From NCBI GenBank assembly GCA_040752415.1, contig JBFMGU010000167.1, positions 1 to 23,820 on the forward strand: a DNA stretch of 23,820 nt, written 5' to 3'. The position numbers were made by a program, and so were the translations under genes. Within the stretch, counting starts at the first letter, position 1. Each line of letters opens with the position of its first letter. The notes under the pieces were generated by a model. It was not told the origin of the DNA. It saw nothing but the letters and a program-made list of their open reading frames with translations, and made no database searches. The DNA is from Myxococcota bacterium (GTDB taxonomy: Bacteria; Myxococcota; JACRCW01). Positions 4,203-22,441 of the stretch are shown here, in pieces.

Positions 4203-4414
4203 GACCACGCCGCACCCGATCGCGTTTCCCCGCCCACGTCGTCCTCACGCCGCCACACCACTCGTGTGTCATGACCCACGCCGCGCGCTCGGATCGCGAC
4301 ACCCATGTCCTGTTTCCCCCGGAAAAAGCCCCTCCCATTCCTTCTCCCGACGTGGCCCACTGATTGCTCTCTCCCACGGCGCGGGAACACGGAGGTTCCT
4401 TGGAGGAGGGTCCC

Positions 4415-6583
4415 ATGCGCGGGGCGGCGGCGAGGGTGGCGAGGAGATGGTTGCTTCTGGGTGTGACGGGCGTGGTGCTGGCCGAGACGGTGGCGAGCGA
4501 GGCGAATGCGGGCGGGTTGGTGGCGACGGGAATTGCTCGCACCGTGGGCGCGGGGATCAACACAGGGCTGGTGAGGTCACCGGTGCGCCCGCCGCCGGTG
4601 GCCTCGCCCGCCGACGTGGGCACGGGCTCCCTGCTCATCAAGCGTGACGACGGGAAGTTCCACTTCATTCCGCTGGAGGGCACGGAGGTCGAGATCGACG
4701 TGCAGGGACTGGTGGCCTCCACCAACGTCATCCAGCGGTTCCTCAATGACAGCGAGCAGCCGGTGGAGGCCGTCTACGTCTTCCCCCTCCCGCACGAGGC
4801 CGCTGTCTACGAGATGGAAGCGCGCATTGGCTCGCGCCTCATCAAGAGCGTCATCAAGGAAAAGGAAGAGGCCAAGCGCACCTATGAGGCCGCCAAGGCG
4901 GAGGGGAAACGCGCCGCGCTGCTGGAACAGGAACGCCCCAACATCTTCACCACGTCGCTGGCCAACCTCATGCCCGGGGACCACGTGGACGTGCGCATCC
5001 GCGTCGTCGAGGCGCTGCAGTGGGATGACGGACGCGTGCGCCTGGTGTTCCCCACCGTGGTGGGCCCGCGCTTCATTCCCGGCAACGTGGCCACCGGGCA
5101 CCAGGGCAGCGGCGTGTCGGCGGACACCGACGTCGTCAACGACGCGTCCCGCATCACCCCGCCGCTGCTGCCGGAGAACGCCACGGAGCACCACACCATC
5201 TCCATTGAAGCGCGCGTGGACCTGGGCGCGCCGCTCATGGAAGTGCTCTCCCCCTCGCACCACATCCTCGCGAGCAGGAACCGCGACGGAAGCACCCGCA
5301 TCTCCCTCGACACCGCGCACGTGCTGCCCAACAAGGACTTCGTGATGGACCTGTTCCCGGAGCGGTCGGAGAAGACGCGCTCGGCGCTGTTCGTCTCGTC
5401 GGAGCCGGTGGGTGGGGAGCGTCACTTCATGATGGTGGCCTACCCGCCCACGGAACAGAAGCAGGGGGAGCGGCCGCCCATGGAGATGCTCTTCCTCGTC
5501 GATCATTCGGGGTCCATGTCGGGCAAGTCCATGGAGCAGGCACGGGAGGCGGTGCTCTACGGGCTCAATCGGTTGCGTCCCGGTGACCGCTTCAACATCG
5601 TCGCCTACGACGACAAGTTCGTGTCCTTCCGTCCCTGGTCGGTGGACGCCGACAGCAGCGGGCTCGAGGCGGGTCGCCAGTTCGTCAACAAGCTCACCGC
5701 CGACGGCGGCACCATGATGCTCCCCGCGCTGGAGTACCTCATGGCCACGCCGCAGGACCGCAAATACCTCCGCTACATCGTGGTGCTCACCGACGGAGAC
5801 CTGGGCAACGAGGACCAGATCTTCCGCGCCCTGCACGAGCAGCTCGGCGAGGCGCGCCTGTTCACGGTGGCCATCGGCAGCGCGCCCAACCACTTCCTGG
5901 CGACGAAGATGGCGGAATACGGTCGCGGCGCCTTCGCGCACATCTCGGACATCGGCGAGATCCAGCGCGAGATGGCGCACCTGCTGGACAAGATCCAGAG
6001 CCCCGCGCTCGCCGACCTCTCGCTGACGTGGGAAGGCCTCACGCCCGAGGAGCTCCTCCCCAACAAGCTGCCCGACCTCTACCTCGGTCATCCGCTGGTG
6101 CTGTTCGGTCGGCTCGCGGGCGGCACCACCGGCTCCGTCGAGATTCGCGGCCGCACCGGCAGCGCAAAGCACGTGGAGCGCATCCCGCTGGACGTGCGCA
6201 AGGCCTCCTTCCATCCCGCCATCAGCACGCTGTGGGCCCGCAAGCAGGTGGACGCGCGCATGAACGCCTGGCGCAACACCTACGACGAGAACGAGCGCGG
6301 CAAGCTCCGCGGTCAGGTCCTGGACCTGGCGCTCAAGCACCACCTGGTCACGCAGTTCACGTCGCTGGTGGCGGTGGAGGAGGTGGTGGTCAACCCCGGC
6401 GGAGAGCAGGCCTCCCTCGCCGTGCCCACCGAGCTTCCCGACGGGTGGGAGCGCGACAAGGTGGTGGGCGCCAATCCGCAGGGCGGGACGTGGGACATGT
6501 TCCTGGAGCTGCTCGGCCTCTGCCTCCTCGCCGCGGGGTGCCTGATGCTGGTTGCTCGTCGTCAGTTGAGGGTGGCGGCATGA
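4415..6583 (+). CDS. VIT + von Willebrand factor A domain protein with C-terminal sortase sorting signal (proteobacterial sortase target type)
   Basis: Start moved to ATG 4415, behind the GGAGGAGG RBS at 4402-4409 (722 aa). N-terminal signal-like segment. VIT motifs EAVYVFPLP and ALLEQERPNIFT. MIDAS residues DHSGS, GGT and TDG. C-terminal NPQGG, then a hydrophobic helix and RR tail. Adjacent to a sortase. Confidence 0.9.
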   Translation: MRGAAARVARRWLLLGVTGVVLAETVASEANAGGLVATGIARTVGAGINTGLVRSPVRPPPVASPADVGTGSLLIKRDDGKFHFIPLEGTEVEIDVQGLVASTNVIQRFLNDSEQPVEAVYVFPLPHEAAVYEMEARIGSRLIKSVIKEKEEAKRTYEAAKAEGKRAALLEQERPNIFTTSLANLMPGDHVDVRIRVVEALQWDDGRVRLVFPTVVGPRFIPGNVATGHQGSGVSADTDVVNDASRITPPLLPENATEHHTISIEARVDLGAPLMEVLSPSHHILASRNRDGSTRISLDTAHVLPNKDFVMDLFPERSEKTRSALFVSSEPVGGERHFMMVAYPPTEQKQGERPPMEMLFLVDHSGSMSGKSMEQAREAVLYGLNRLRPGDRFNIVAYDDKFVSFRPWSVDADSSGLEAGRQFVNKLTADGGTMMLPALEYLMATPQDRKYLRYIVVLTDGDLGNEDQIFRALHEQLGEARLFTVAIGSAPNHFLATKMAEYGRGAFAHISDIGEIQREMAHLLDKIQSPALADLSLTWEGLTPEELLPNKLPDLYLGHPLVLFGRLAGGTTGSVEIRGRTGSAKHVERIPLDVRKASFHPAISTLWARKQVDARMNAWRNTYDENERGKLRGQVLDLALKHHLVTQFTSLVAVEEVVVNPGGEQASLAVPTELPDGWERDKVVGANPQGGTWDMFLELLGLCLLAAGCLMLVARRQLRVAA

Positions 6584-7224
6584 GCGCCACGGTGCTCCCC
6601 GTCGTGCGACCGGTGGTCTCCGTCGCCACCGCCCGGCGGTTGCTGGTGGTGACGGCGGTGCTGCTGACCACGGCGGGGGGCGTCCTCACCGCTCGCGCGC
6701 TCTACCTGCGCGCCAAGGCCGCCCTCGCCGCGCATCTCATCGCCCGTGCCTGGGAAGACACCCTGCGCACCGGCGTCAACACCCCGCCGTGGCCCTGGGC
6801 GGATACGCATCCCATCGGCCGATTGATCATCCCGCGCATCGGCTACAACGAGGTGATCCTCGAGGGTGCCAGCGGCAGGAACATGGCGTTTGGACCCGCG
6901 CACATGATGGACAGCGAACCGCTCGGGGCGCCGGGCAACATGGTGGTGGCCGGGCACCGCACCAGCTGGTTCCTGCCGCTCAAGGACGTGGCGGTTGACG
7001 ACGACATCCAGCTGCAATGGCGCAACGCGGCGACGGGTGCGCTGACGCAACGTGTCTATCGTGTGACGGAAATTCACGTGATTGACCCGGCGGATCTCAC
7101 GTACATCACGCCGGCCACGACGGAATACCTGACGCTCATGACATGTTACCCCTTCGGACACCAACCGCATTCTCCTCGACGCTACGTCGTGCGTGCGGTG
7201 CCGGTGCCCGAGGGGCGCGGATGA
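6580..7224 (+). CDS. Sortase (class GN / proteobacterial-type)
   Basis: ATG 6580 overlaps the upstream stop (ATGA); 214 aa. N-terminal TM. AKAALAAHLIARAW..PWPWADTHP motif characteristic of proteobacterial sortases. Catalytic His in AGHRT (H126), Cys in LTLMTCYPF (C189) and Arg in RRYVV. Confidence 0.92.
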   Translation: MSATVLPVVRPVVSVATARRLLVVTAVLLTTAGGVLTARALYLRAKAALAAHLIARAWEDTLRTGVNTPPWPWADTHPIGRLIIPRIGYNEVILEGASGRNMAFGPAHMMDSEPLGAPGNMVVAGHRTSWFLPLKDVAVDDDIQLQWRNAATGALTQRVYRVTEIHVIDPADLTYITPATTEYLTLMTCYPFGHQPHSPRRYVVRAVPVPEGRG

Positions 7225-8026: not shown

Positions 8027-10978
8027 GTGTCAAGAGCGCGTTTTTCCGCCATTTTTCTCGCGGTGCTCCTCCATGCGCCCCTCGCGCGCGCGGAGGTCAT
8101 CCTGCAGTGGTTCGAGACGCCGTATGCCGAGATCGAGGCGCGCATGCCGGAAGTGGCGCTGGCGGGCTATTCGGCGCTCTGGCTGCCTCCGCCGACCAAG
8201 GGCGCGGACGGCGTGGCCGACGTCGGGTTCGCGTTGTTCGACCGTTTTGACCTCGGTGACCGTGACCAGCGTGGGACGGTGCGCACGCGTTACGGCACGT
8301 TGGCGGAGCTGCAGAGCATGGTGCGGACCGCCCACCGCTACGGCATCCGCGTCTATTTCGACACCGTCATGAACCACAACTCCAACCCCTCGCGGGTGGA
8401 GTTCCAGGGCGGTCCCGCCACGCCGCCCAACATGCTCGAGTATCCCGGCATGACGCCGCTGGACTTCCACGTCTGGCCCGCCAATCCCACCGGCACGCCG
8501 GGTGAGTACAACGCGCGTCGTCCCAGCGAGTTCGGCGGTGGCACCATCAACGTGCGTCCCTGGCAGGACAATTGCCCCGCCAACACCATCTGCGAGGACG
8601 ACTTCATTGCCGCCGTCGCCATCGCCGACATCCCCGCGGAACAGCTCCCGCCCGGCGGCGCCAATCACCCGGCGTTGCAGGGCTACACGCATCTCATTCG
8701 CGCGCCGCGCATGAACTTCGGAGGGCTCGCCGGGCAGAACTGGTGCGCGCCGCAGGACCGGGGCAACGGCTGCGCCTATGAGCTGCTCAACGCCAGCCTC
8801 CTCGGGCTCATCGACATCGCCAACGAGCAGCTCGCGGATTCCTCCGGGCCCACGTCGGGAGACGGCACCAACCTGGTCACGGGGACGCCGCTCATCTCGT
8901 ACGTGCGCAGTGCGGACCGCCCGGAGACGTATCCCAGCAGCAGTCCCACGGCGGAGGACTCGCGCCAGTACCTCATCCGTTGGATCAAGTGGCTCTCCGA
9001 GACCACCGACGCGGACGGCTTCCGCCTCGACGCCATCCGGCACACCCCGGAGAGCTTCTTTGGTGAGGACTATCCCGGTGACCCGGTGGCTTTTGACAAG
9101 GTCATCCAGGACAGCTTTGACGAGCGGCGCGGCTACTCCGACGGAAATGACGACGATCTCGACGGTGACGCGGCCATCTTCGGTGAGTCGTTCACGGGTG
9201 ACATCTACGGTGAGCTGAACTCGTACCGTCGGACGGGCATGCGGCTGCTCAACTTCCCGCTCTTCTTCCGTCTCAAGGGCGTCTTCTACAGCGGCGCGGA
9301 TTCCGGCGACGGAGACATGGGTCAGCTCAGCTATCCGCACGGCGGCCAGACCGGTCCGCTCGAGGAGTTCGGCGGCCTGGGCCGCTGGGACGGCGTGAGC
9401 TTCATCCAGTCCCACGACGAGTGCCCGCCCGGAACGCCCGTGCGCAACGTCCCCAACTGCATCCCCGGCGAGAACCCGCAGGATGACCTGGCGCAGGCGT
9501 TCATCACCATGCGCCCCGGCGACAGCGTGGTCTACTTCGACGGCAACAACTTCACGGAGAGCACGTTCGTGCGCGCAGGTCGCGTGGACGCGCTGGGGGA
9601 CTTCCAGGACGCCATCGTCAAGATCGTGCGGGCCACGGAGGACGGCGCGCGCGGCGGCATGTTCAACCGCTACGTGGACGACGACGCGTACGTGTTCGAG
9701 CGCATTGTCGACGGGTACGGCGCGGCCGCGCTGGTGGTCCTGCACGACAACATCAAGCCCGACGGGCGCGTGGACGGTGAGGGCATTGCCAAGTTCGGCG
9801 GCTTTGATCCGCGGCCGCTCATCGTGACGTCGTTCCCGCCGGGCACGGTGCTGATGGATCTCACGGGCAATGCGCCGGTGGGCAGCGAGGTGCTGACGGT
9901 GCTGGATCCCGCCGTCGTCTCCCAGGGCGAGAAGGACAACGCCTACGCCGCGCACACCAATGCCAACGGCGGGAACACCTTCGTGCCGCCCGACCACGGC
10001 CTCATCTACTTCGGCGTGCGCAACGGTCCCGTCGGGAACTACCTCATCTACGCGCCGGCCGGCGTCTCGCCCCAGCTCGAGATCGTCGTGGGGGGCTCGG
10101 CGGCGCCCAGCGAGAATGTGACCACGTCGCAGGGGAAGGTGACGCACGTGGGGGCGAATGTTCCCGCTTCGCAGTACGCGCGCTACCAGGTGCCCCCGTC
10201 GTTCACGGTGCGCGTCCCGGTGACGTCGACGGTGGGCGCGGTGGCGGGCCTCACGGTGGACAGCGCCGTGCCGGCGGGACTCTCGCCGCTGAGCGCGACG
10301 CCCGAGGGCGCGGCCGACGGCATGGGCACCATGAGCACCAGCGGCAACGCGTTCGAGGCGCAGCTCAGCGGACTGACCGCCGGCGAGCACCTGGTGAAGG
10401 TCCGCGTGGTTTCCGACGTGGCGGGGGCCGCGTCACGGCTGGTGACCCTGCGCGCGCTGGTGCGCGTGGAGGGCGTGGTCAACGTCGACGCCGGTGTGCG
10501 GAACGACGCCGCGGTGGATGATGACGCGGGCGGCCAGCAGACGCCGGATGCCTCCGTGCGCGACGCCGGTCAGCGCGACGCGGCGATTCCCGACGGAAAT
10601 GTTGTGCTTCCCGACGGGGGAACGCCGCCTGACAGCGGTGCGCCCGCCGACAGCGGCCCCGCGGGTGACCAGGACAACGACGGCGTGGACGACGCCACGG
10701 ACAACTGCGCCACGGAGCCGAACGAAGACCAGACCGACTTTGACGGCGACGGCGTGGGCAACGTGTGCGACCTCTGCCCGGCCACGCAGGGCGCGAACCT
10801 CGTCGACGAGGATGGTTGCCCGCAGCTCCCGCCCGACGTGCGGCAGGAGCTGGATGAGCTGGTGGAGATGGTGGTGGGCATCCGTCCGGAGAACCAGGCG
10901 CTGGACCAGGACCTCGATGGCGATTTGGACGCGGTGGACATTGCGCGGGCCGTGGTTCGCGCGCAGGACCGGAGGTGA
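8027..10978 (+). CDS. Secreted GH13 alpha-amylase-family enzyme with TSP3 repeats and a C-terminal dockerin-like module
   Basis: GTG start; signal peptide ending ARA|EVILQWFE. GH13 regions: WLPPPTKG, RTRYGT, DTVMNH (I), DGFRLDAIRH (II, D335), IFGESF (III, E387) and SFIQSHD (IV, D464). These are followed by a DAG-rich linker, thrombospondin type-3 repeats (DQDNDGVDDATDNC..DFDGDGVGNVCD) and LDQDLDGDLDAVDIARAV. Confidence 0.9.
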   Translation: MSRARFSAIFLAVLLHAPLARAEVILQWFETPYAEIEARMPEVALAGYSALWLPPPTKGADGVADVGFALFDRFDLGDRDQRGTVRTRYGTLAELQSMVRTAHRYGIRVYFDTVMNHNSNPSRVEFQGGPATPPNMLEYPGMTPLDFHVWPANPTGTPGEYNARRPSEFGGGTINVRPWQDNCPANTICEDDFIAAVAIADIPAEQLPPGGANHPALQGYTHLIRAPRMNFGGLAGQNWCAPQDRGNGCAYELLNASLLGLIDIANEQLADSSGPTSGDGTNLVTGTPLISYVRSADRPETYPSSSPTAEDSRQYLIRWIKWLSETTDADGFRLDAIRHTPESFFGEDYPGDPVAFDKVIQDSFDERRGYSDGNDDDLDGDAAIFGESFTGDIYGELNSYRRTGMRLLNFPLFFRLKGVFYSGADSGDGDMGQLSYPHGGQTGPLEEFGGLGRWDGVSFIQSHDECPPGTPVRNVPNCIPGENPQDDLAQAFITMRPGDSVVYFDGNNFTESTFVRAGRVDALGDFQDAIVKIVRATEDGARGGMFNRYVDDDAYVFERIVDGYGAAALVVLHDNIKPDGRVDGEGIAKFGGFDPRPLIVTSFPPGTVLMDLTGNAPVGSEVLTVLDPAVVSQGEKDNAYAAHTNANGGNTFVPPDHGLIYFGVRNGPVGNYLIYAPAGVSPQLEIVVGGSAAPSENVTTSQGKVTHVGANVPASQYARYQVPPSFTVRVPVTSTVGAVAGLTVDSAVPAGLSPLSATPEGAADGMGTMSTSGNAFEAQLSGLTAGEHLVKVRVVSDVAGAASRLVTLRALVRVEGVVNVDAGVRNDAAVDDDAGGQQTPDASVRDAGQRDAAIPDGNVVLPDGGTPPDSGAPADSGPAGDQDNDGVDDATDNCATEPNEDQTDFDGDGVGNVCDLCPATQGANLVDEDGCPQLPPDVRQELDELVEMVVGIRPENQALDQDLDGDLDAVDIARAVVRAQDRR

Positions 10979-10980
10979 GC

Positions 10981-11439
10981 ATGCGGACGTTGACGGTTGT
11001 GGCGCTGGCCCTGCTCGTGGGCGCGGGCGCTTGTCCCAACACCACCTCCACGCCGCCTACGCCGCCACCGGAGGTCGGTCGCCTCATCGCGGTCACGCGC
11101 GCGGGTAGTGTCGACGTCGAGATCGATTCCTCGCTCGCGCCGCTGGCCGTGGCCGCCACCGTGAAGGTCCAGGGTGCGCGCGTTGCGGGTGCCGCGCAGG
11201 CGGGTTCCGCCGCGGCGGACCGCGACCTTTTCAAGCAGAAGGCGTTCAACGAGGAGGACATGCGCTTTGCCATCTCCGACTCACGCGCGTTGCGCATCCA
11301 GCGCAGCGGGGTGCTGGTGAGCATTCCCGTCGACGGCACGCCCACCAACGTGGAAGTCACCGACATCACCGCGGCCAGTGAGGACGGCTCTGAAGTCATC
11401 CTCAAGGGCTTCAACGGCGCACCGGAGGCACGGCAGTGA
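10981..11439 (+). CDS. Small lipoprotein with a putative cohesin-like beta-sandwich domain
   Basis: ATG 10981 after GGAGG (10971-10975); 152 aa. Lipobox GAGA-C18 and a Pro/Thr linker. The remaining ~115 aa are beta-rich with cohesin-like features (V.V.I, MRFAISD, I..SGVLVSIPV, V.V..I.AASEDG). The gene is well supported; the cohesin call is inference. Confidence 0.7.
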   Translation: MRTLTVVALALLVGAGACPNTTSTPPTPPPEVGRLIAVTRAGSVDVEIDSSLAPLAVAATVKVQGARVAGAAQAGSAAADRDLFKQKAFNEEDMRFAISDSRALRIQRSGVLVSIPVDGTPTNVEVTDITAASEDGSEVILKGFNGAPEARQ

Positions 11440-14400
11440 GGACCTGCAAGCTTCCGTCCCTGTTGCTCCTCCTCTCCTCTGTGACCACGGGCGGGTGTGG
11501 TCTGGAGAGCATCTTCTTCGCGCGTGACTTCGTGCCCACGCCGCCGCCGCATGCCGTCATCAAGGGCTCCGTGGGCGGTGTTCCCGACGGGCTCTCCGGT
11601 CGGCTGGGCGGCGTCGCGTTGACCGCGCGCGCCCTCGCCGTCGACGGGCGGCTCCTGGCCAGCACCAGCGCCAAGCTCGGTGAGTCCTTCACGCTGGACC
11701 TGCAGCCTAACCTGGGCGACCAGTACAACGTGCGTGTCGTCGTGGGCGCGGGCAGTACGCAGCTGCGCAGCATGGCCACCGAGGTGCGCGACGGCGCCGA
11801 GACCGACGTGGGCGAGGTCAATGCCTCCACCACCGCCAGCTCGCTCCTCCTCGAGGCCTATGCCGGGACCGCGCGCAGCGGCCTGGCCGGGACGCCGCCC
11901 ACCGTCGGCAACAAGGTCCTCCAGAACGGTCGCGACACCGCCAACCCCGACGTGGCCGCCTACCACGACGTGCTGCGCGCCATCCTGGATGCCAGCAATC
12001 CCAACGGCGGGCAGTCCGCTTTCGCCGACGTGGGCGGTGATCCCACCGACGACGCGCTGGCCGCCGCTTCCATCGAGCGCGAGCGCTACGAGGAGCTGCG
12101 CCAGAAGGCCGTGGATGCCGTGGGCGTGCCGGTCATCTGCGACCAGAGCCGCGTGCGCGTCATGTTCTCCGTCGACGTCAGCGGGCAGGGGCTGGATGGC
12201 AACGGGAAGAAGCAGTTCATCCGCCAGGCGCCCAAGGAAGGCCGCGTGTTCCTGGGCATCACGCTGGACCCCTCGTCGCCGGTGCCGGATTCCGCGCGGG
12301 CCATGAAGAGCCGGCTCACGCCCAATGACCCCGACACCGAGATGTTCGACGACGCCACCCACGGCGACGAGGTGGCCGGCGACCAGGTGTTCACGACGAC
12401 GATCGTGCTGCCGCGCGGCATGCGCGTCATCTACAAGTACACCGACGGTTCCCCCGGCGAGGGCTACACCGGTACGGAGGAATGGCCGGGCAATGCTCGC
12501 ATCCTCGAGATCAAGGACGTCATCACCGGCAATCCCGACGGGAAACCGGATTGTCTCGTTGTGCGTCGGGACAGCTTTGGGGATGAGAGCAGCAACAAGA
12601 ACTTCGTGAACCTCCACGCGGTGCTCGCGGGCGGCGCGCTTTCCTATGACCAGGACCTCGGTGGCCCGGCCATGACGCCGGCGTCGTCGTCGGAGCTGCT
12701 GCCGGTGGCCGGGCTGGCTGTCGACGCGCTCCGCACGGTGGCGCCGCTGACCCCGCAGGGCTTGGCGGAAGCGCGCGAGAACGGCTCCTGCACCATCTGT
12801 CCGCCGCCGGTGACCGTCCCCGTCGACGACTCCGAGCCGCCGCGCATCATCTCCGCGCGGTTCTCCGCCACCGACGAGGTGGTGGTGCTCTTCAGCGAGG
12901 ACCTGGACCTTGGCACCGCCGCCAGCACCAACAACTACCTCATCGTCGACGAGGCCAACACGTCCCTGCCCATTCGTCGCGTGGGCGTGGCGGGCGCGCT
13001 GGTGACGCTGTCGATTGACCCGGTGGATCCACGCAAGGCGTACACGCTCTTCGTGAAGGACGTTGCCGACGCCAGCCTGGACCGCAACCCCGTGGCGCAG
13101 GATACCCGCGTCACCATCGGCGGCGACACCACCGCGCCGCGCCTGGTCTCCGCGCAAGGGGCCTCCATCACCGACGTGAACCCCGCCGCCCGTCCCGCCG
13201 ATCCCCGCGGCGGTGAGGTGGTGGTGGTGACGTTCTCCGAGGTGCTGGACCGCATCTCCGCCGAGAACACCGCGGCGTATCGGCTGGAGGGTCCCTCCGG
13301 TGCGCTGCCCGTCTACGCCGCATTCCAGCGTGGCCGCGACGTGCTGCTGGTGACCGACGCCATGACCGGCGGCGCGTCGTACACGGTCTACGCGGACGCG
13401 GTGTTTGATGCGGCGGGCAACCTGATTGCGCGCGGCTCCTCGACGACGTTCACCGGTCTCAAGCTGTACAAGGTGCAGATCAACGCGGTCCCCGGACACG
13501 CATGGCGCAGCGTCGACGGGACGGAGCGCGGTCTGCCTCCCGGAGATGGCCTCTATGTGACCGGCACCATCATGACGGCGGCGCGCGGTGTCGACGGGGC
13601 GGACCTCCGTACCACCGGCCGCAGCGACGTCGCGGGTCGTGATGGGTACCGAATGACCGAGGTTGCCGAGGAGAAGGTCTCCGGTCAGCCCGTGCATCGC
13701 CTCGAGCTGATGCTCCCGGTCGGGACGTACGCCTACAAGCTCGCCCACGGCCGTCCCGCCGACGCCGCCGCCCCGCCCGCGACGTTGGAGACCGTCACCA
13801 AGAGCCTTGTCACCGCCAACGACGCCACCGGCGTGCAGGTGGACCCGATCACTTCCACCGGCGCCGACGGACTCAGCTACGCCGGAGCGCGCCTGTCGCT
13901 CACCGGGGCGGATACCGCGGGACCCGGCGTCCTCTTCAAGCGTGAGAACCCGGACAGCGTTGTCAACGTGGTCGACGAGGACGTCGTGCTTCCCACGCTG
14001 ATCATCGGCACCTGGCGTGACGTGCCATTCGGTCGCGGCCGCGACTACGACGACGGACTCCGTGAAATCGCAATGCCCGTTGCCGGCGCGGTCGACGGTG
14101 AAGGTCCGCTGGCCATTGCCGCGGAGGCGCGTGATTCCGAAAGCGTCCTGCTCTCATTCGATGAGGCGCTGAGCACGCTCGCTGCCGACCTGGTGGCCAC
14201 GATCACCGACGAGGAAGGCACGCCGCTTCCCGCCACCGTGCTCGCGGTTGGCATCCCCCGTCCCAGCCAGGCGGTGTTGCGCACCGGGCCCATGGGACTC
14301 AACCGCGGCTACACCGTCCTCGTCGCGCGCGCGGCCGACACCGGTGGCCACGTGCGCAATGACGCCATCACGGTCGCCTACAACGCGCCGGGTGCGTACA

Positions 14401-15668
14401 CGCCGTTCACGCCGGTGGTCGACGAGGATCCGCCCGTGGTCACGTCCGTGAGCGCCACCGGCCCCACCAGCCTGACGGTGCGCTTCTCGGAACGCGTGGC
14501 CAACACCGCCGCCGATCCCGCGCGCTACACCGTCGATCCCGCGCTGCAGGTGCTCTCCGCGCGCCTCGTGGAAGCCGGACGCGCCGTGGTGCTGACGACG
14601 GGAACGCAGGAGTTCCGCGCCGCGTACCGCCTCACCGTGACCAACATTGACGACCTCGCCACGCCCACCGCGAACCGGTTGACGTCGCAGGAGATTGCGT
14701 TTGAAGGCTTCGGTGACGCCGACGCGCCGACGATCCTCTGGGCCCGCGCGGTGACGCCGAACCGCGTGGTCCTCAAGTTCAGCGAGGTCATCAACGCGTC
14801 ATCCGCGTCGGTGCCGGAGAACTACGTGCTCACCGGGGTCAACGTCACCAAGGCGGAAGCGTCCAACCTTGACGACGTCCGCGTCTCCGCGTTCAACGCC
14901 GACTGGGCGCCGCTGCGTGGTGACCTCGTGGTTTTGCACACCGACACCATGGAGGGAGGCCGCAGCTACACGGTCACCGCGACCAACGTGCTGGACCCCA
15001 GCGGCAACCCCTCCGCGACCACGGCGACATTCACCGGCGTTTCCGAGGCGCCGCGGGTCACCGTCGAGCTGCGCTACGTCATCTCCAACACCGCCGCTGT
15101 CGTCGGGGTGGGCTCCGGTGGGGCGGCGGGAATCCCCGCGCGTGCCATCAGCCCGCAGCGCCTGGCCTCCGAGCGCGAAGGCGTGTTCATCAAGGGCACC
15201 GCGCTCACCGAGAATGGCGCCTCGCCGGTCACGGACCACGCCGTCACGCAGACCCTCGGCGGCTTCCCCGAGGAGGGCTCACCCCTCGACGGCGCGGAGC
15301 CTGGCCTGCGCGACGACGGTCAAAGCGGGGACGCCACCGCCAACGACAACATCTTCACCATCACCATCCCCAACGTGCCGCTCGGCTCGGTGCTCTCGTA
15401 CAAGGCGTTCGCTTCGTACTCGACGAGCTACCGCGACTCCTCGGGTGACCCACTGGCCAGCTTCGCCGACGCCACGCCCGGTCCGTTCGTCTTCGCCGAC
15501 GGACAGGAGTACCCCGGTCACGACAACGGCGCGTGGATCCTTGCCGACGAGAACGGCGACGGCCGCGTGGTGCTGGAGAACCTCTTCGGTGACGAGGTGA
15601 CCTTCAAGCGCAAGACCGGCTTCCGTCCCTTTGCCTGGGTCACCGACGAGTGGCGGAGGCAGGAATGA
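11436..15668 (+). CDS. Large (1410 aa) surface lipoprotein with five Ig-like (Big_5-type) repeats and three CBM-like / choice-of-anchor-X-like modules
   Basis: GTGA overlap with the upstream stop and a GGAGG RBS. Lipobox TTGG-C21. Five repeats of the P.(I/V)..A....V.V.FSE type (about 12837, 13134, 14103, 14430, 14724). Two DD[AG]xxGDxxAxDxxFT motifs. No catalytic motif recognised. Confidence 0.85.
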   Translation: MRTCKLPSLLLLLSSVTTGGCGLESIFFARDFVPTPPPHAVIKGSVGGVPDGLSGRLGGVALTARALAVDGRLLASTSAKLGESFTLDLQPNLGDQYNVRVVVGAGSTQLRSMATEVRDGAETDVGEVNASTTASSLLLEAYAGTARSGLAGTPPTVGNKVLQNGRDTANPDVAAYHDVLRAILDASNPNGGQSAFADVGGDPTDDALAAASIERERYEELRQKAVDAVGVPVICDQSRVRVMFSVDVSGQGLDGNGKKQFIRQAPKEGRVFLGITLDPSSPVPDSARAMKSRLTPNDPDTEMFDDATHGDEVAGDQVFTTTIVLPRGMRVIYKYTDGSPGEGYTGTEEWPGNARILEIKDVITGNPDGKPDCLVVRRDSFGDESSNKNFVNLHAVLAGGALSYDQDLGGPAMTPASSSELLPVAGLAVDALRTVAPLTPQGLAEARENGSCTICPPPVTVPVDDSEPPRIISARFSATDEVVVLFSEDLDLGTAASTNNYLIVDEANTSLPIRRVGVAGALVTLSIDPVDPRKAYTLFVKDVADASLDRNPVAQDTRVTIGGDTTAPRLVSAQGASITDVNPAARPADPRGGEVVVVTFSEVLDRISAENTAAYRLEGPSGALPVYAAFQRGRDVLLVTDAMTGGASYTVYADAVFDAAGNLIARGSSTTFTGLKLYKVQINAVPGHAWRSVDGTERGLPPGDGLYVTGTIMTAARGVDGADLRTTGRSDVAGRDGYRMTEVAEEKVSGQPVHRLELMLPVGTYAYKLAHGRPADAAAPPATLETVTKSLVTANDATGVQVDPITSTGADGLSYAGARLSLTGADTAGPGVLFKRENPDSVVNVVDEDVVLPTLIIGTWRDVPFGRGRDYDDGLREIAMPVAGAVDGEGPLAIAAEARDSESVLLSFDEALSTLAADLVATITDEEGTPLPATVLAVGIPRPSQAVLRTGPMGLNRGYTVLVARAADTGGHVRNDAITVAYNAPGAYTPFTPVVDEDPPVVTSVSATGPTSLTVRFSERVANTAADPARYTVDPALQVLSARLVEAGRAVVLTTGTQEFRAAYRLTVTNIDDLATPTANRLTSQEIAFEGFGDADAPTILWARAVTPNRVVLKFSEVINASSASVPENYVLTGVNVTKAEASNLDDVRVSAFNADWAPLRGDLVVLHTDTMEGGRSYTVTATNVLDPSGNPSATTATFTGVSEAPRVTVELRYVISNTAAVVGVGSGGAAGIPARAISPQRLASEREGVFIKGTALTENGASPVTDHAVTQTLGGFPEEGSPLDGAEPGLRDDGQSGDATANDNIFTITIPNVPLGSVLSYKAFASYSTSYRDSSGDPLASFADATPGPFVFADGQEYPGHDNGAWILADENGDGRVVLENLFGDEVTFKRKTGFRPFAWVTDEWRRQE

Positions 15669-17527
15669 GCACCATGCGTTGCATCCTCCCCGTGGTCGCG
15701 CTCCTGTGCGCGTGTCCCACCACCACGACGTCGACGCCGCAGGAGGCGCCGCGTGGTGACGGCTTCTCCAGCGTCTACACGCTCGACGAGCGCACCGTGC
15801 TGCTCTCGTTCACCCGCAAGGTGGACGGGGCCTCGGTGCAGGCCGGCGCGTTCGAGATCGCGGATCGCACGGTGGTGCCGTTCGTGAATCTGCCCGTCGA
15901 GTCGGCGTCGGCGAGCGGGCCCGCGGAAATCACCTTGACCACCGGTCCGCAGGAGCCGGGTCGCACGTACACGCTGAAGATCAACGGCCTCAAGGATGAG
16001 GGTGGCTATCCCCTCGACGGGACGCTCAACTTCACGGGCGGCGGCGCGGTGCGGAAGTCGCAGGTCACCATCACGCTGGGCGACGCGGAGCGCGCGCTTG
16101 CCTGGGGTCCCATGCGCCTGGAGATCAGCGCCAACCCCTCGACGGGCGCGTGGACGGAATCGCTCCATCCGCTCGACCTCACCGTGCAGGGCGCGGTCTA
16201 CACCATCACCCTCGAGCTGGAGGTCAATCCCCGCCGCACCGCGGATCGTCGTGATGATCTCGACCCCGTCGTCGACCGTCGCGCCTACGCGGTGCGTGCC
16301 GTCGTCATCGAGGGTGGTCAGGTTGCCAGTCCGCTCTTCCCGTTCGAGGTGACCACCACGGCCGCCACCAACATCGTGCTCCCGCTCTTTGAACCGCCGG
16401 AGCCACCCCAGCAGCCCGGCGGCACGTTCGACCCGCCCGAGGACCCGAATCCCGGTGATGGCCTCAAGCGCGTGCGTCTCATCGTCGACGACCGGCAGTC
16501 CGGCGAGCTGGTGAATCCGCAGCTCAAGGCCAGCTTCACGGCCGGCGGCGACTTCGATGTGACCTTCCCGCAGACCCTCACGCTGGAGCAGCCCGTGGAG
16601 GCGCGGTTCTACGAGGTTACCGTCGACGTCAAGGTGGACCCCAACCGTCGCATCGACGGCACCGACGAGAACACGCTCCCGTACATCATCTACCTCGTGA
16701 ACAACGGTGTCGACGTGGACGCCATCAACGTGAGCGTGGTGGCGCCGGATGAGACGCCGGAGGCGGTGGTGGTGCCGCTGGGTGACCCGTCCATGACGCC
16801 GGTGACCTTCCGCGTGGACGTGGGCGCCGCCTTCCTCACCGCCGACGGCACCCAGCGCGGCGTGTTTGACGGCGAGTCCGTCTGGCTCACCGGCGAGTGG
16901 CAGATTGCCGCCGACGTCCTGGGCCGCAACGCGGGCGACGCGTTCACCGGTGGCGAGCAGTCCACGCTCGAGATGCGTGAGGACAGCGAGCATCCCGGCG
17001 TGTGGACCAAGACGCTGTGGCTCCCCGGCGGGCGTCCCTACGGCTGGAAGGCGGTGCGCTGCCAGATCGCCGTTGGCTGTGGACCGCTGAATCAGCGCGT
17101 GGCGTCGTCGGGACGCGCGTTCGCCACCGTGATGAAGAACCTGGTGACCGAGAACCAGGATGCCTTCGCCGTGCCCGCTGTCGTCGTGGTGGACCCGCAC
17201 AACCTCTCCGCGGTGCCGCTCTCGTCGGGGAACGCGGACTATTCCAATGCGTCGGTCTACATCGGCAACGGCGAGGGCGGGGAGGACAACCCGCCGGGGA
17301 TGCCCAATCCCAGCACGCTCTTCAAGCAGGAGTCGCCGGACCTGGCGGTTGTCGTGGGGGATGAGCCGGTGCGGACGCCCATCTACGTCGTGGGAACATG
17401 GCGCGACATCAACCTGCCCATGCGCCCCGCGGACATCTTGAACAGCCAGGAGACGGTGAACCTCTCGCCCTATGACTACGACGAGGGGTTCATCGGCCGT
17501 TATCCGCCCAGTCGGAGTGAACCGTGA
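15665..17527 (+). CDS. Surface lipoprotein (620 aa) with an Ig-like repeat and a C-terminal CBM-like module
   Basis: ATG 15665 (ATGA overlap, GGAGG RBS at 15655-15659). Lipobox LLCA-C17. N-terminal Big_5-like segment (VLLSFTRKVD..YTLKINGLKD..G). The C-terminal module VTFRVDV..VWLTGEW..LEMRE..PGVWTKTLWLP..YGWK is reminiscent of starch-binding CBM20-like folds. Confidence 0.85.
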   Translation: MSTMRCILPVVALLCACPTTTTSTPQEAPRGDGFSSVYTLDERTVLLSFTRKVDGASVQAGAFEIADRTVVPFVNLPVESASASGPAEITLTTGPQEPGRTYTLKINGLKDEGGYPLDGTLNFTGGGAVRKSQVTITLGDAERALAWGPMRLEISANPSTGAWTESLHPLDLTVQGAVYTITLELEVNPRRTADRRDDLDPVVDRRAYAVRAVVIEGGQVASPLFPFEVTTTAATNIVLPLFEPPEPPQQPGGTFDPPEDPNPGDGLKRVRLIVDDRQSGELVNPQLKASFTAGGDFDVTFPQTLTLEQPVEARFYEVTVDVKVDPNRRIDGTDENTLPYIIYLVNNGVDVDAINVSVVAPDETPEAVVVPLGDPSMTPVTFRVDVGAAFLTADGTQRGVFDGESVWLTGEWQIAADVLGRNAGDAFTGGEQSTLEMREDSEHPGVWTKTLWLPGGRPYGWKAVRCQIAVGCGPLNQRVASSGRAFATVMKNLVTENQDAFAVPAVVVVDPHNLSAVPLSSGNADYSNASVYIGNGEGGEDNPPGMPNPSTLFKQESPDLAVVVGDEPVRTPIYVVGTWRDINLPMRPADILNSQETVNLSPYDYDEGFIGRYPPSRSEP

Positions 17528-20500
17528 TGCTCAAGCACTTCGTCATCGCCGCCGCGGTCCTCCTGCCGTCGCTGGCGCACGCGCAGTACGTCGAGAACGT
17601 GACGTTCACCGTCAAGGACAACGTTGCGGGCCCCAACACGCCGCGCCCGTGGAACACCGTGCACCTGATGCTGGACCACGCAGGTGGACGCAACAAGCTG
17701 CAGAACGCCCGCCCCATGACTCGCATGCCCGACGAGAACGGGGCGCGCGTCTTCTCCATCACCGTGCCCATGGAGGAGGGCGACTACATCTACGTGTTCG
17801 TGGTGAACGTGGAGGACATTGGCACCGGCGGCGTGGATCTCAGCGACCCCAACCTCAACCCCGACGACGTGGCCGACAACAAGTTCTTCACCGAGCCCAA
17901 CCCGCGCTTCCAGGGCTTCGGCGGTCAGTACGGCAAGGACAACGTCTACTTCGTGCGCGACCCCAATCGCCCCACGTTCAACAAGGACAGCTTCCAGCCC
18001 GGCTACGGCGCGCTCATCACCGGCAACAGCGTCACGTTCAGTGTCACCGTCAACGCCGGCGCCGACGCGCGCGCGCTCGGTGGTCCCGGCAGCGCTGTCC
18101 CGCCCCGCGTGGAGGTCCAGCTCGGCGATCCGCCCGGTGTCCGCTACACCAACCCCGCCGACGTCACCGAGCCGCAGTGGCTCGAGCTCTCGCCCGTCAC
18201 GTTCAACTACGACGCCAACCAGCGTCGGGGAACCATCTCCGCCACGTGGCAGAACCCCACGGAGGGCTTCCACTTCGTGCGTTTCAACGTCGCCAATGAC
18301 CAGGGTCTGGCAGCGGACCCGCACCTCGGCTCCATCCAGGTCAACCGCGACAACCAGCCGCCCGTCGCCAACGCGGGCAGCACGAAGTTCGGCAAGGTGG
18401 GGCAGGAGATCGTCATCAACGGCGGCATGACCAACGACCCGGACCTCGTCGGCCTGCAAAGCTACAACTGGCGCGTCATCAGCGGTCCCGGCGGCGCCAA
18501 CGTGACCTGGCGCTACGTGGAGGAGGAGCGCATTCCCCGCGACGGCTTCGGCAAGGGCATCGTCGACGAGCATGGCAACCTGCAGGGCGACAACATCAAC
18601 CAGCCCACCGCGCTCCCCCGCTTCAAGACCGACCGCGCCGGGACGTACGAGATCGGCATGACGGTGACGGACATCGGCGGCGCGCAGAGCGCGGAGTCGG
18701 TGACGCGTGTCGTCGTGGTGGACAGCTTCAATCCCGCCATCAAGGTGCGGCTGGAGCCCTACGTGGACGGCAATGACATCGTCATCGACGCCTCCCTCTC
18801 CAGCGGCCCCGGCGCCACGTCCATGACGGTGTATCCCGACGCGGCGAACGCGGTGGCCATCAATCCCTCGGTGAACGGGATGGTGGCGCGTTTCCCCAAG
18901 CCGCCGCCGGGCTTCTACCTCTTCCACGTCATGGTCGGCGGCAACAGCTACCACCGCTCCGTGTTCGTCCACGTCGACGAGGCGGGCAACGCGTTCACGC
19001 AGGACTACGGCACACCGCCCAAGCCGTGGCGCGAGGACCGCGTGATGTACCTGGCGTTCGTCCGCGAGTTCTACGACAGCAACAACGACGGGGAGGGTGA
19101 CTTCCTCGGCATGATCGACAAGCTGGTCCACCTGCAGCAGCTCGGCGTGAACGCGGTGTGGCTCATGCCGCTGACGCCCGGCCCCACCACGCACGGCTAC
19201 GCCGCCAGCGCGCAGTTCAACAGCGAGGAAGACTACGGCACGCTGGAGCAGTTCGAGCTGCTGGTGCAGACCGCGGACGCGCTGGGCATCGAGGTCATCA
19301 TGGACCTGGTGGCCAATCACACGTCGGCGGAGCACCCCTTCTTCGTCAACGCGCAGGCCAGCACGCAGAGCAGTCTCCGCAACTGGTACCCGTTCAACGC
19401 CGACGGCACCTACCGCTACGCGTTCGACTTCATCGCGCTCCCCGACGTCGACACGAACAATCCGCTGGTGCGCCGCAACATCGTGAACATGGTGAACTTC
19501 TGGATGGAGCGCGGCGTGCGCGGCGTGCGTGCGGACATTGCCGGATTCACCTCGCCCATCCTCTGGGAGGACGTGCGGCGGGCGGTGAAGACGCACAACC
19601 CGCAGGGCGTGGTCCTCGCCGAGCTCATCCCGCCCCAACCGGAGTACTTCGACCAGCGCTTTGACATGGCGTACGGCGCGGAGACGTTCTGGGAGCTGCG
19701 CAACGGCATCGGTGGCTCGGGTGACCTGCAGAACATCGACAACGGCCTCGAGCGTGAGGAGACGTTCTTCTCCCGCGCCACCAGCGCGCGCGTGCGTGAG
19801 TCGCTGCGTCAACAGGACATCCTGTGGATGCACTACCTGGACAACCAGGATGAGGACCGCTTCCTGCTCCGCGCGGGCAAGGATCTCCGTCGGAGCCGCG
19901 TGGGCGCGGGCGTGCTGATGACGCTCCCCGGCGTGCCGCTGGTCTACTACGGCGACGAGGTGGGCATCCCCGAGCTGCGCGGCCGCATGCCCTTTGGCGC
20001 GTTCTCTCCCGGCGGGCAGGCCCTCCTGGAGCTGTACCGCAAGCTCATCCTCATCCGTCGTCACAACGCCGCGCTGGCCGCACATGACGACGCACCCGAG
20101 CTGCAACCCGGCAACAGCTACCTGCGCATCAACAGCAACGCCGACCAGGGCGGTGGCAACGTGTTCAGCTTCGTGCGCTACGGCTCGCACCAGCGGTTCA
20201 TCGTGCTGGCCAATCGCAACGACTCCACGGTGCTGGGCACGGCGGTGAAGTTCTATCCCCCGTCCGCCATCATGACGGAGTTCCCCGACGGACCGCTGAA
20301 GCTCGTCGACCACCTGGACCCCACCGACCAGCGCACCATCAACAAGGCGGACCTGCTCTCACCCAACGGCGCCACCGCGTCGGTGCGCGGGTTCACCACC
20401 AAGATCTACCAGGTCACCCGCTTTGGCATCCCCGACGAGGACCACGACACCGTGCTGGACAGCTATGACCGCTGCGTCGGCCGCGCCAACGCGGACCAGC

Positions 20501-22307: not shown

Positions 22308-22388
22308 GAAAACCGCTGCAATTTCAGGTGGTTGCATCACTGGCGCCAATCGCCGGGTGCCCGGTCTTGGTCGCGGACCCGCCGTCGG

Positions 22389-22416
22389 TTGAGAAGCGGA
22401 GGCCGTTTGGTATGTT
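22389..22416 (+). promoter_or_regulatory. Candidate sigma70-type promoter
   Basis: TTGAGA (22389-22394), 16-nt spacer, TATGTT (22411-22416) with an extended -10 TG. It lies just upstream of the GGAGG RBS and ATG 22442. Confidence 0.4.
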
Positions 22417-22441
22417 CCCGGCCCCTTCCGGGAGGCCCCGC

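Follow-up and report, generated by a model that had tools for sequence, protein, structure and literature searches.

A candidate cohesin-dockerin-type docking pair formed by an exported amylase and its neighbouring lipoprotein in Myxococcota

Introduction

Could an exported amylase that carries no anchor be held at the membrane by the small lipoprotein encoded directly behind it? Docking between cohesins and dockerins organises cellulosomes as well as the Ruminococcus bromii amylosome, and has mostly been studied in Gram-positive anaerobes. Such assemblies combine several dockerin-bearing enzymes with a scaffoldin that displays one or more cohesins. Solved cohesins have in common a jelly-roll beta-sandwich of ~120-150 residues, while the hallmark of dockerins is a pair of tandem ~22-residue segments, each composed of a 12-residue Ca loop and a helix. 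The resulting dockerin fold contains two antiparallel helices flanking the Ca loops, and both folding and cohesin binding depend on Ca2+.

The locus considered here belongs to an uncultured MAG of a Myxococcota bacterium (GTDB JACRCW01; assembly GCA_040752415.1; 11 Mb, 96.8% complete). The window, that is, the whole stretch of DNA that was analysed, comprises 23,820 nucleotides of contig JBFMGU010000167.1. The original prediction for this DNA read the end of an amylase as a dockerin and the adjacent lipoprotein as a cohesin, which together would constitute a minimal amylosome tether. Following up on this proposal, we consider it probable that the amylase and the small lipoprotein dock to each other non-covalently, as a dedicated pair of cohesin-dockerin type.

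Results

An amylase without an anchor of its own, and the operon around it

All features described below lie on the forward strand. The amylase gene (8027-10978) is an ORF for a 983-aa alpha-amylase, which is assigned to GH13 by its match to PF00128 (Alpha-amylase; 36.3 bits, cut-off 22); NCBIfam alpha-amylase models match below their cut-offs. It is followed by the ORF of a 152-aa lipoprotein (10981-11439) and by the rest of the operon (11436-21630, delimited by ORFs and their overlaps), encoding two larger lipoproteins of 1410 aa (11436-15668) and 625 aa (15650-17527) as well as a second GH13 enzyme (1368 aa, 17524-21630; ORF, Pfam and NCBIfam) with a near-threshold MYXO-CTERM match at its C-terminus (17.5 bits, cut-off 20). 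Each of the latter three products has its own anchor. Judged by eye, the amylase starts with a signal peptide without Cys (MSRARFSAIFLAVLLHAPLARA/EV) and has no hydrophobic anchor at its C-terminus; no other product of the operon lacks its own anchor. Large Ig-domain lipoproteins occur in this operon alongside two GH13 enzymes, and its gene order is matched in genome G001 and in metagenome contig L017.

The genes for the amylase and the small lipoprotein are tightly packed: the amylase stop codon (TGA, 10976-10978) and the lipoprotein ATG at 10981 are 2 nt apart, the ribosome binding site of the lipoprotein (GGAGG, 10971-10975) sits within the last codons of the amylase, and the lipoprotein stop codon overlaps the GTG of the 1410-aa lipoprotein gene by 4 nt. 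Translational coupling is apparent on both sides of the 152-aa lipoprotein gene, as read from the nucleotide sequence. The amylase-tail translation, the 2-nt gap and the MRFAISD and SGVLVSIPV motifs of the lipoprotein, all quoted in the original prediction, are present where they had been placed.

The lipoprotein model adopts a cohesin fold

The lipoprotein begins MRTLTVVALALLVGAGAC, with a putative signal peptide and a lipobox that reads LVGAGA-C18 (Cys18 at 11032-11034), and continues with a Pro/Thr-rich linker (residues 19-30; signal peptide to linker, 10981-11070). A search of 1.84 billion proteins yielded 7 representatives of its family, and at least 90% of 20 members retain the lipobox Cys. 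AlphaFold2 (AF2) yielded a model (pLDDT 88.3, pTM 0.77) that is all-beta over residues 31-146; pLDDT is low in the signal peptide and linker region and reaches 94-98 in blocks of the remaining domain (residues 31-148; 11071-11424).

Two independent structure searches agree on the nature of this domain. Foldseek against the PDB returned 40 matches at E<=1e-3, with cohesins making up all of the matches listed (best, 2jh2_A, 1.9e-6). VIA-align, run against 48,161 chains, placed cohesins at each of ranks 1-20 (Z 14.2-9.7), headed by 2xdh_A (Z 14.2, rmsd 2.2 Å, 112 residues aligned), and the first non-cohesin follows at Z 9.5; superpositions in the top 20 have rmsd values of 2.2-3.4 Å over 112-124 residues, except for one NMR entry (5.6 Å over 128 residues). 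The ESM Atlas holds its own model of the lipoprotein, which resembles 10 clusters at TM 0.78-0.81, the aligned part being PF00963 in 3 of the 10. The predicted model of the lipoprotein thus has a cohesin fold, as had been proposed.

Sequence comparison gave a different outcome. PF00963 (Cohesin) does not match the lipoprotein at E<=1 or its domain at E<=10, and is found nowhere in the genome at E<=1; PF00404 (Dockerin_1) finds nothing on the domain at E<=10. Likewise, a 20-sequence profile of the lipoprotein family recovered no cohesin among solved structures at E<=10. Given that neither Pfam family matches the lipoprotein or the amylase tail, the sequence motifs (F.F.D and others) that had been offered as evidence for a cohesin carry no weight.

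A dockerin-like tail with a single Ca loop

Upstream of the tail, the amylase contains TSP_3-like Ca-binding repeats with Cys pairs (10661-10816; sub-threshold matches of 19.5-21 bits, cut-off 25) and an MtsC-like stretch (residues 879-930, NCBIfam). The repeats end in an invariant VDxxGC motif, whose G and C are found in 13 of 13 tails; with its invariant Cys, this stretch ahead of helix 1 is not a Ca loop. The last 58 of the 983 residues, encoded by 10802-10975, read VDEDGCPQLPPDVRQELDELVEMVVGIRPENQALDQDLDGDLDAVDIARAVVRAQDRR and show the architecture of a helix, a 12-residue Ca-type loop and a helix. In the AF2 model of a 66-aa tail (pLDDT 85.4), the helices span residues 19-33 and 52-65, corresponding to helix 1 (PDVRQELDELVEMVV; 10832-10876), after which come a Gly and a short linker, and helix 3 (AVDIARAVVRAQDR; 10931-10972). 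The single canonical EF/F-hand loop, DQDLDGDLDAVD, was located by sequence reading (10904-10939), and 13 of 13 tails have the same residues at its positions 1, 9 and 12 (D43, D51 and D54 in 66-aa numbering).

The tandem duplication typical of dockerins is absent from the tail, which has one canonical Ca loop, the second, instead of two; on account of this single loop, it is not a canonical dockerin. PF00404 does not match the tail at E<=10, and none of its 8 sub-threshold matches in the genome falls there. A tail profile matched generic EF-hand loops of solved Ca-binding proteins first (E 3e-5 to 2e-4) and dockerins only at E 0.09-1.2. With the tail model, both Foldseek and VIA-align ranked dockerins at the top, yet without significance: E values were 3.4-5.2 in Foldseek, and in VIA-align the dockerin 2vn5_B (Z 3.1, rmsd 2.8 Å, 44 residues) tied with unrelated helical proteins.

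A confident predicted complex

When tail and lipoprotein were modelled together, the predicted complex scored an ipSAE of 0.94 in 3 of 3 runs, compared to 0.26, 0.02 and 0.01 for the controls, with at least 97% of contacts common to all runs and partner pLDDT values of at least 81. Of solved complexes 116 of 157, and of mismatched pairs 2 of 215, attained the score mark; these rates apply only roughly here, as our own alignments and riding Ca were used. When the tool itself was tried on blind neighbour pairs, 7 of 44 passed. Such a score expresses how confident a model is, and it may in part reflect memory of the fold, given that cohesin-dockerin complexes have already been solved.

In the predicted complex, the lipoprotein contributes residues 54-58, 83-87, 95-97, 99-103, 130-134 and 136-138, and both tail helices are in contact with it, through residues 22, 25-26, 29-30 and 32-35 on the helix 1 side and residues 51-53, 55-57, 59-60 and 62-63 on the helix 3 side (66-aa frame). 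Counting strands ourselves from the AF2 model rather than from coordinates, the docking face would correspond to the classical 8-3-6-5 sheet. The original prediction of a degenerate first loop and a single binding mode fits these results: among the tails only a single canonical loop shows conservation, and in the predicted complex the lipoprotein is contacted by both helices.

D100 and R102, the only invariant residues of the lipoprotein, belong to the predicted docking face. In the lipoprotein, interface columns are better conserved than the other columns (mean entropy 1.70 vs 2.09 bits, p=0.014, among kin that are not independent); in the tail, their conservation does not exceed that of the other columns (p=0.49). 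Lipoprotein Arg103 co-occurs with tail Asp/Glu56 in 7 of 7 loci and Ala/Gly103 with Ala/Val56 in 6 of 6, a covariation that may represent a single evolutionary event.

Tail and lipoprotein genes are strictly paired

The amylase is present in 19 of the 401 Myxococcota genomes sampled. In all 15 genomes that could be assessed, that is, with the 3' end of the amylase gene on the contig, the tail is directly followed by the lipoprotein; these genomes represent four GTDB families of the phylum, and in the other 4 the locus is cut by contig ends. Adjacency is kept even in genomes whose downstream genes differ, and no tail-bearing amylase homologue without the lipoprotein was found among the assessable genomes. 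A metagenome contig likewise carries the amylase tail and then the lipoprotein. Seen from the other side, proteins encoded upstream of lipoprotein homologues match PF00128 in 12 of 12 cases scanned, 11 of them over the cut-off. Conservation of the tail and of the lipoprotein, together with their adjacency in all relatives that could be assessed, takes the pairing beyond chance.

The tail is also exclusive to this enzyme family. Among 5.8 billion proteins, the tail profile found 18 matches in all, 13 of which are PF00128 proteins of ~900-1040 aa and 2 are fragments; the other 3 are weak matches (E 5e-6 to 4e-4) to unrelated proteins, one named EF-hand. In the genome of the locus, HMMs for the tail and for the cohesin-like domain recovered one copy each. 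A single tail, borne by this amylase family, and a single cohesin-like gene therefore indicate a dedicated 1:1 tether rather than a multi-enzyme amylosome, and the amylosome label originally attached to the locus is too strong.

Discussion

The cohesin fold of the lipoprotein model, the predicted interface and the conserved adjacency together leave the proposed cohesin-dockerin tether largely intact. In the mechanism we envisage, the signal peptide would export the amylase as a soluble protein, whose last ~50 residues would form a pair of antiparallel helices connected through a linker and a single Ca-binding loop. The TSP3 repeats ahead of this module, which are rich in disulfides, would probably brace it. 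Both helices of the tail would rest against a single sheet of the cohesin-fold domain, which in turn would hang from its lipidated Cys via the short Pro/Thr linker. The amylase would thereby be kept at the membrane, next to two further lipoproteins and the MYXO-CTERM-type second GH13 enzyme. Placement at the membrane is suggested by the lipobox; binding itself is predicted by the complex model, and its anchoring role, Ca dependence and single orientation would be features of this arrangement. At a broader level, and with somewhat better than even chances in our estimate, the locus may exemplify a branch of the cohesin-dockerin system that is invisible at the sequence level and native to the Gram-negative Myxococcota. 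A lipid-anchored single cohesin would there capture one secreted amylase via a half-degenerate dockerin with one Ca loop on TSP3 repeats, and the pair would have diverged into at least three co-varying specificity groups, such as the one with lipoprotein Arg103 and tail Asp/Glu56.

Binding of the tail might also serve a purpose other than anchoring for starch attack, with the lipoprotein holding the amylase in the periplasm, helping its export or piloting it, releasing it in a Ca-switchable manner, or inhibiting it. The predicted binding and the fold evidence fit such roles equally well, strict 1:1 pairing would also suit a dedicated chaperone, and the lipoprotein may face the periplasm as well as the cell surface. 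We nevertheless regard these roles as unlikely: judged by their entry titles, all characterised cohesin-dockerin pairs among the structure matches serve assembly or tethering, and surface assembly is the simplest reading given that every other operon product has its own anchor. Inhibition in particular is improbable, because the predicted contact involves the C-terminal module, ~50 residues past the TSP3 spacer and distant from the catalytic domain.

We give slightly less credence still to the idea that there is no specific binding at all, the lipoprotein being a generic beta-sandwich with, for example, a glucan-binding or structural function, the tail a Ca site of EF-hand type lending stability to the TSP3 region, and the two genes neighbours by virtue of a starch operon. 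By sequence the tail resembles any EF-hand loop, its fold searches were not significant, both partners are invisible to Pfam as cohesin and dockerin, and some blind neighbour pairs passed the complex test. However, the top 20 structural neighbours of the lipoprotein are cohesins and not carbohydrate-binding modules, its complex score lies far above the controls, its invariant D100 and R102 lie within a predicted protein interface, and the adjacency persists where downstream genes differ. Starch-binding sites usually rely on Trp or Tyr, and the 152-aa lipoprotein contains neither, which argues against glucan binding. Least plausible, and in our view highly improbable, is that the locus forms the heart of a genuine multi-enzyme amylosome, in which the lipoprotein would be the scaffoldin for several dockerin-bearing enzymes, as in R. 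bromii. The two GH13 enzymes and large Ig-domain lipoproteins of the operon could be taken to favour it, whereas the lipoprotein has one cohesin-fold domain, the second GH13 enzyme ends in a MYXO-CTERM-like anchor without a tail, the tail is restricted to one amylase family, and both modules are single-copy in a nearly complete genome.

A docking pair between amylase and lipoprotein would matter for several reasons. With one enzyme and one partner side by side, a predicted interface and named residues, the locus provides a clean, testable case. It would also represent a cellulosome-style pair in Gram-negative Myxococcota that standard annotation and Pfam-based censuses miss; that Pfam overlooks such pairs has been noted for ruminococci, too, in a 2026 AlphaFold survey (PMC13463774). 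If true, cohesin-dockerin docking would be an old and general device for hanging secreted enzymes on the envelope and not an invention of Firmicute cellulosomes, and the family would be a source of small, naturally orthogonal and possibly Ca-switchable docking pairs. A ~50-residue tail and a ~120-residue domain, available in three sequence groups, could serve as orthogonal docking parts.

The best structural matches of the lipoprotein are the Archaeoglobus fulgidus cohesin (2xdh) and cohesin-like modules of Clostridium perfringens GH84 and GH33 enzymes (2jh2, 2w1n, 2vo8, 2o4e). Like the lipoprotein, these are single cohesins outside cellulosomes; unlike it, they are recognisable by the cohesin sequence family, and the Myxococcota cohesin would be a free-standing Gram-negative lipoprotein encoded beside its single cargo. 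For the tail, the closest parallel is offered by group-2 dockerins of Ruminococcus flavefaciens, described as naturally truncated modules with one Ca loop that bind the ScaE cohesin (PMC12270676). Dockerins with a single binding mode are reported in the same source to use both helices 1 and 3, and the tail model engages both helices in a similar manner (PMC12270676). Group-2 dockerins are, according to that account, ~40-residue modules of one segment that bind two per cohesin (PMC12270676), whereas the tail, at ~50 residues, keeps two helices, comes after TSP3 repeats and is modelled at 1:1. The anchors differ as well, a sortase-attached scaffoldin in R. flavefaciens as described there (PMC12270676) and a lipoprotein here.

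With the R. bromii amylosome (PMC4611034), the locus would share the organisation of GH13 amylases on the cell surface by cohesin-dockerin contacts. The Firmicute R. bromii has several dockerin-bearing amylases and scaffoldins, each of which can be recognised by sequence, while the Myxococcota locus has one enzyme, one cohesin-fold lipoprotein and no scaffoldin. Like our bacterium, Saccharophagus degradans is Gram-negative and degrades polysaccharides, and it too has TSP3 repeats and lipoprotein-anchored enzymes (PMC2386152). In 2008, the authors of its genome asked whether dockerin-like motifs might bind cohesin-like modules and so hold enzymes at the surface of Gram-negative degraders (PMC2386152). 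The modules of S. degradans are presented there as scattered and distantly related, and the matter is left as a question (PMC2386152); here, by contrast, the partners are adjacent and co-conserved, and their complex is predicted with confidence.

Organization of the amylase operon

The window, contig C76 of a genome of 11.0 Mb (520 contigs, 96.8% complete), carries five genes packed as a tight operon on the plus strand, from 8027 to 21630. The first encodes a GH13 amylase of 983 aa (8027-10978, +; PF00128 at 36.3 bits, cut-off 22; sub-threshold TSP_3), whose C-terminal sequence, VDEDGCPQLPPDVRQELDELVEMVVGIRPENQALDQDLDGDLDAVDIARAVVRAQDRR, is identical to the tail quoted in the original prediction. 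Its TGA stop codon occupies 10976-10978, a GGAGG lies at 10971-10975, and the ATG of the second gene follows 2 nt past the stop, at 10981, in agreement with the spacing reported earlier. This second gene (+, stop at 11439) encodes a lipoprotein of 152 aa, for which Pfam returns nothing credible and which does contain the MRFAISD and SGVLVSIPV motifs ascribed to it. Its stop shares 4 nt with the start of the third gene, encoding a 1410-aa lipoprotein (11436-15668, +) in which Big_5 Ig-like domains, 'choice-of-anchor X' and, weakly, a pullulanase X25-like stretch are recognized. A 625-aa lipoprotein without family match (15650-17527, +) and a second GH13 enzyme of 1368 aa (17524-21630, +; PF00128, 7.6e-45) with PKD-like and TSP3 stretches complete the operon. 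The C-terminal end of the latter is Cys-rich, hydrophobic and contains RRRR, and scores just below two MYXO-CTERM cut-offs (17.5 vs 20 bits; 15.3 vs 15.85). All four products other than the amylase have apparent anchors of their own, namely a lipobox in three and the near-threshold MYXO-CTERM-like end in the second GH13 enzyme.

Sequence-family searches

The amylase tail and its neighboring lipoprotein had been proposed to form a dockerin-cohesin pair. Judged by sequence, both family tests fail: Pfam and NCBIfam scans of the two partners returned no cohesin, dockerin or other family, and neither the tail alone nor the lipoprotein domain alone matched Dockerin_1 or Cohesin (PF00963), respectively, at E<=10. 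Since these tests fail, the resemblance to cohesin and dockerin motifs cited in the original prediction carries no weight as evidence. Across the genome of the window, PF00963 gave 0 matches at E<=1, and PF00404 gave 8 sub-threshold matches, 0 of them at the amylase tail. A profile built from 20 sequences of lipoprotein family members found none of the solved cohesins, and a tail profile run against solved proteins placed EF-hand loops on top (E 3e-5 to 2e-4), with dockerins at E 0.09-1.2. A weak, below-cut-off match of the tail to PF19195 (DUF5870; E 0.002), joining window 10838-10969 (residues 13-56 of the 58-residue tail at 10802-10975) to family positions 21-64 of 488, led nowhere; PF19195 had 0 matches across the genome, which says little because none of 14 control genomes gave a match either.

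The lipoprotein is predicted to adopt a cohesin fold

Structure prediction points to cohesins. The AlphaFold2 model of the lipoprotein, built from a 9-sequence alignment, is all-beta (pLDDT 88.3, pTM 0.77), with blocks from residue 31 onwards at 94-98. Foldseek against the PDB, a check proposed with the original prediction, gave 40 matches at E<=1e-3, and all among the matches listed are cohesins, headed by a cohesin-like module of C. perfringens (2jh2_A, 1.9e-6) and a non-cellulosomal cohesin of A. fulgidus (2xdh). VIA-align, which is independent of Foldseek, agrees: among 48,161 chains, cohesins fill ranks 1-20, with Z falling from 14.2 to 9.7 ahead of the first non-cohesin at 9.5, and the best match is 2xdh_A (rmsd 2.2 A over 112 residues). 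In the ESM Atlas, the lipoprotein's own model has its 10 nearest structural clusters at TM 0.78-0.81; the aligned part is PF00963 in 3, and others bear Cohesin or Dockerin_1, these rows serving as leads only. The predicted cohesin fold of this domain is therefore well supported, and the lipoprotein may be called a cohesin by predicted fold, but not by sequence family. In the structure-search alignments, no solved cohesin exceeds 20% sequence identity to it.

The ESM Atlas clusters come from Myxococcota, Bacteroidota and Verrucomicrobiota, and Pfam-recognizable Cohesin or Dockerin_1 occurs in clusters from each of these phyla (one from Bacteroidota with Por_Secre_tail). Gram-negative phyla may accordingly have more cohesin-type modules than would be expected from published work on cellulosomes.

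The amylase tail as a putative dockerin-like variant

For the tail, we modeled a 66-aa frame (10778-10975), which AlphaFold2 folds with pLDDT 85.4 and helices at residues 19-33 and 52-65. Fold searches with this model gave nothing significant, the tail being too small for them; dockerins top both searches, yet at values (Foldseek E 3.4-5.2, VIA Z 3.1) level with unrelated helical proteins. Among 13 tails, the second loop is of the canonical 12-residue EF/F-hand type, and its positions 1, 9 and 12 do not vary. The segment before helix 1, VDxxGC with invariant Gly-Cys, closes the TSP3 region and is no Ca loop. The tail lacks two features that define dockerins, a match to the Pfam model and a segmental duplication, and we therefore label it dockerin-like: it is a variant outside the dockerin family proper, and the earlier assignment holds in this looser sense but not for a canonical dockerin.

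A predicted complex and its interface

We modeled the complex with one Ca, using an alignment of 20 rows for lipoprotein residues 31-152 and of 13 rows for the 66-residue tail. It scored ipSAE 0.94 in 3/3 runs, against 0.26 for the best control (0.02 and 0.01 for the others), so that the proposed modeling of the pair came out in favor of binding; the runs had at least 97% of contacts in common, with partner pLDDT of at least 81. Among 157 solved complexes, 116 reach the tool's mark, as do 2 of 215 mismatched pairs; these counts are only a rough guide here because the alignments were our own and a ligand rode along. Given that cohesin-dockerin complexes have been solved, the score may partly reflect memory of the fold; against this stand the low identity to solved cohesins (<=20%) and sequence homology that is undetectable.

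Predicted contacts involve lipoprotein residues 54-58, 83-87, 95-97, 99-103, 130-134 and 136-138, on strands that, by our own count on the model, would equal cohesin strands 3, 5, 6 and 8. On the tail, both helices take part (residues 22-35 and 51-63). Because both helices are used and internal symmetry is missing, the model fits the single binding mode that had been predicted; single-binding-mode dockerins likewise use both helices (PMC12270676). The sole invariant residues of the lipoprotein family, D100 and R102, both fall within the predicted interface, and the lipoprotein's interface columns show higher conservation than its other columns (mean entropy 1.70 vs 2.09 bits, p=0.014), among sequences that are kin and not independent. 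Tail interface columns were not more conserved than others (p=0.49). Across the family alignments (A4 for the lipoprotein, A5 for the tail), Arg at lipoprotein position 103 pairs with an acidic residue (Asp/Glu) at tail position 56 in 7/7 loci, and Ala/Gly at 103 with Ala/Val at 56 in 6/6. This pattern suggests a clade-specific salt bridge, but may be one evolutionary event. The loci divide into three sequence groups: the window type, one pairing 'ADTRR' with 'VDVxDL[DE]', and one pairing 'GDKRG' with 'IDVxDFV'.

Tail and lipoprotein occur together

Amylase orthologues (E<=1e-30) were found in 19 of 401 sampled genomes of the phylum. Wherever the 3' end of the amylase gene lies on the contig (15/15 genomes: G000, G001, G027, G039, G057, G068, G072, G082, G083, G087, G119, G124, G138, G150 and G152), the amylase ends in the tail and the cohesin-like lipoprotein follows directly, so the adjacency that was to be checked is kept throughout. 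The other four, left out of this count, are three genomes with contigs ending within the amylase (G073, G111, G130) and one in which a contig end cuts the amylase and the lipoprotein opens a different contig (G142). The 15 genomes span four GTDB families (f1, f6, f18, f32); compared with the window's proteins, the lipoprotein goes as low as 18-28% identity and the tail as low as 22-35%. Among scanned proteins upstream of the lipoprotein, 12/12 match PF00128, 11 above cut-off. The case named beforehand as damaging, a tail kept where the lipoprotein is missing, did not turn up in any genome searched: an apparent lack of the partner in G072, G087 and G138 came from the insensitive first profile (A1), and the 20-sequence profile finds the lipoprotein beside the amylase in all three. 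Conversely, an A1 match in G339 (E 9.8e-4) was taken as spurious, being unrepeated at E<=0.01 in a genome lacking an amylase orthologue.

The lipoprotein family is small, with 7 representatives in an exhaustive search of 1.84 billion cluster representatives, plus copies in genomes of relatives. Word-indexed searches with the lipoprotein and the amylase tail region returned only the window's own proteins, and scans of genome and metagenome contigs contributed nothing beyond the G001 contig and a single metagenome contig. A tail-only profile run against 5.8 billion proteins found 18 (17 besides the window's own), comprising 13 PF00128 proteins (901-1037 aa), 2 fragments and 3 weak matches to unrelated proteins (E 5e-6 to 4e-4; one named EF-hand). 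Source names include 'Myxococcota bacterium' and 'Deltaproteobacteria bacterium', and none of the 18 carries a dockerin annotation.

The metagenome contig L017 repeats both the pair and the genes downstream of it. Both larger lipoproteins (1410 and 625 aa) are retained after the pair there and in G001, and the larger one also in G119, G142 and G150; the genes listed after the pair in G083 include no counterpart of either.

Discussion

We consider it likely that the amylase is captured through its dockerin-like tail by the cohesin-fold lipoprotein and so stays with the assembly, with somewhat greater confidence in binding itself than in anchoring. The amylase would be exported as a soluble protein and caught by the cohesin-fold domain via its C-terminal module with a single Ca loop. 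Since every other operon product has its own anchor, such docking would explain how the one anchorless enzyme is retained. Starch-binding sites usually use aromatic residues, and the lipoprotein has neither Trp nor Tyr, which argues against a starch-binding module. Nor does the locus qualify as a multi-enzyme 'amylosome': two HMMs find just one tail and one cohesin-like gene in the genome, and a weak second tail candidate on contig C445 (E 0.05) has no support from the tail HMM. Of the 'minimal amylosome tether' originally proposed, the tether is supported as a dedicated 1:1 pair, whereas the amylosome is rejected. The observation is confirmed and its interpretation, given two corrections, supported.

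In 2009, Peer et al. reportedly surveyed non-cellulosomal cohesins and dockerins in all three domains of life. The pair described here resembles cohesin-dockerin pairs in its proposed mode of action, and R. flavefaciens group-2 dockerins offer a precedent for a functional one-loop dockerin (PMC12270676). The R. bromii amylosome is the functional analogue for starch but is reported to be multi-enzyme (PMC4611034). In S. degradans, a Gram-negative degrader, dockerin-like and cohesin-like modules were noted but left untested (PMC2386152). The text of PMC11557425 does not contain Gram-negative, Proteobacteria, Myxococc- or lipoprotein, and no description of the amylase-lipoprotein pair was among the papers that the literature searches listed.

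Several neighboring genes deserve mention in their own right. At 4364-7224 (+), a 739-aa VIT and VWA protein (PF08487, 6.6e-36; PF13768) overlaps a following sortase ORF (PF04203, 9.6e-24), placing a sortase and its likely substrate side by side in a Gram-negative genome. A 446-aa ORF at 22328-23668 (+) combines an N-terminal zinc ribbon (PF13717) with GYF_2 (PF14237). Upstream of the operon in G001 (locus L005, 1-1242), an ORF carries a long, near-perfect run of DAAVV pentapeptides before a globular C-terminal part.
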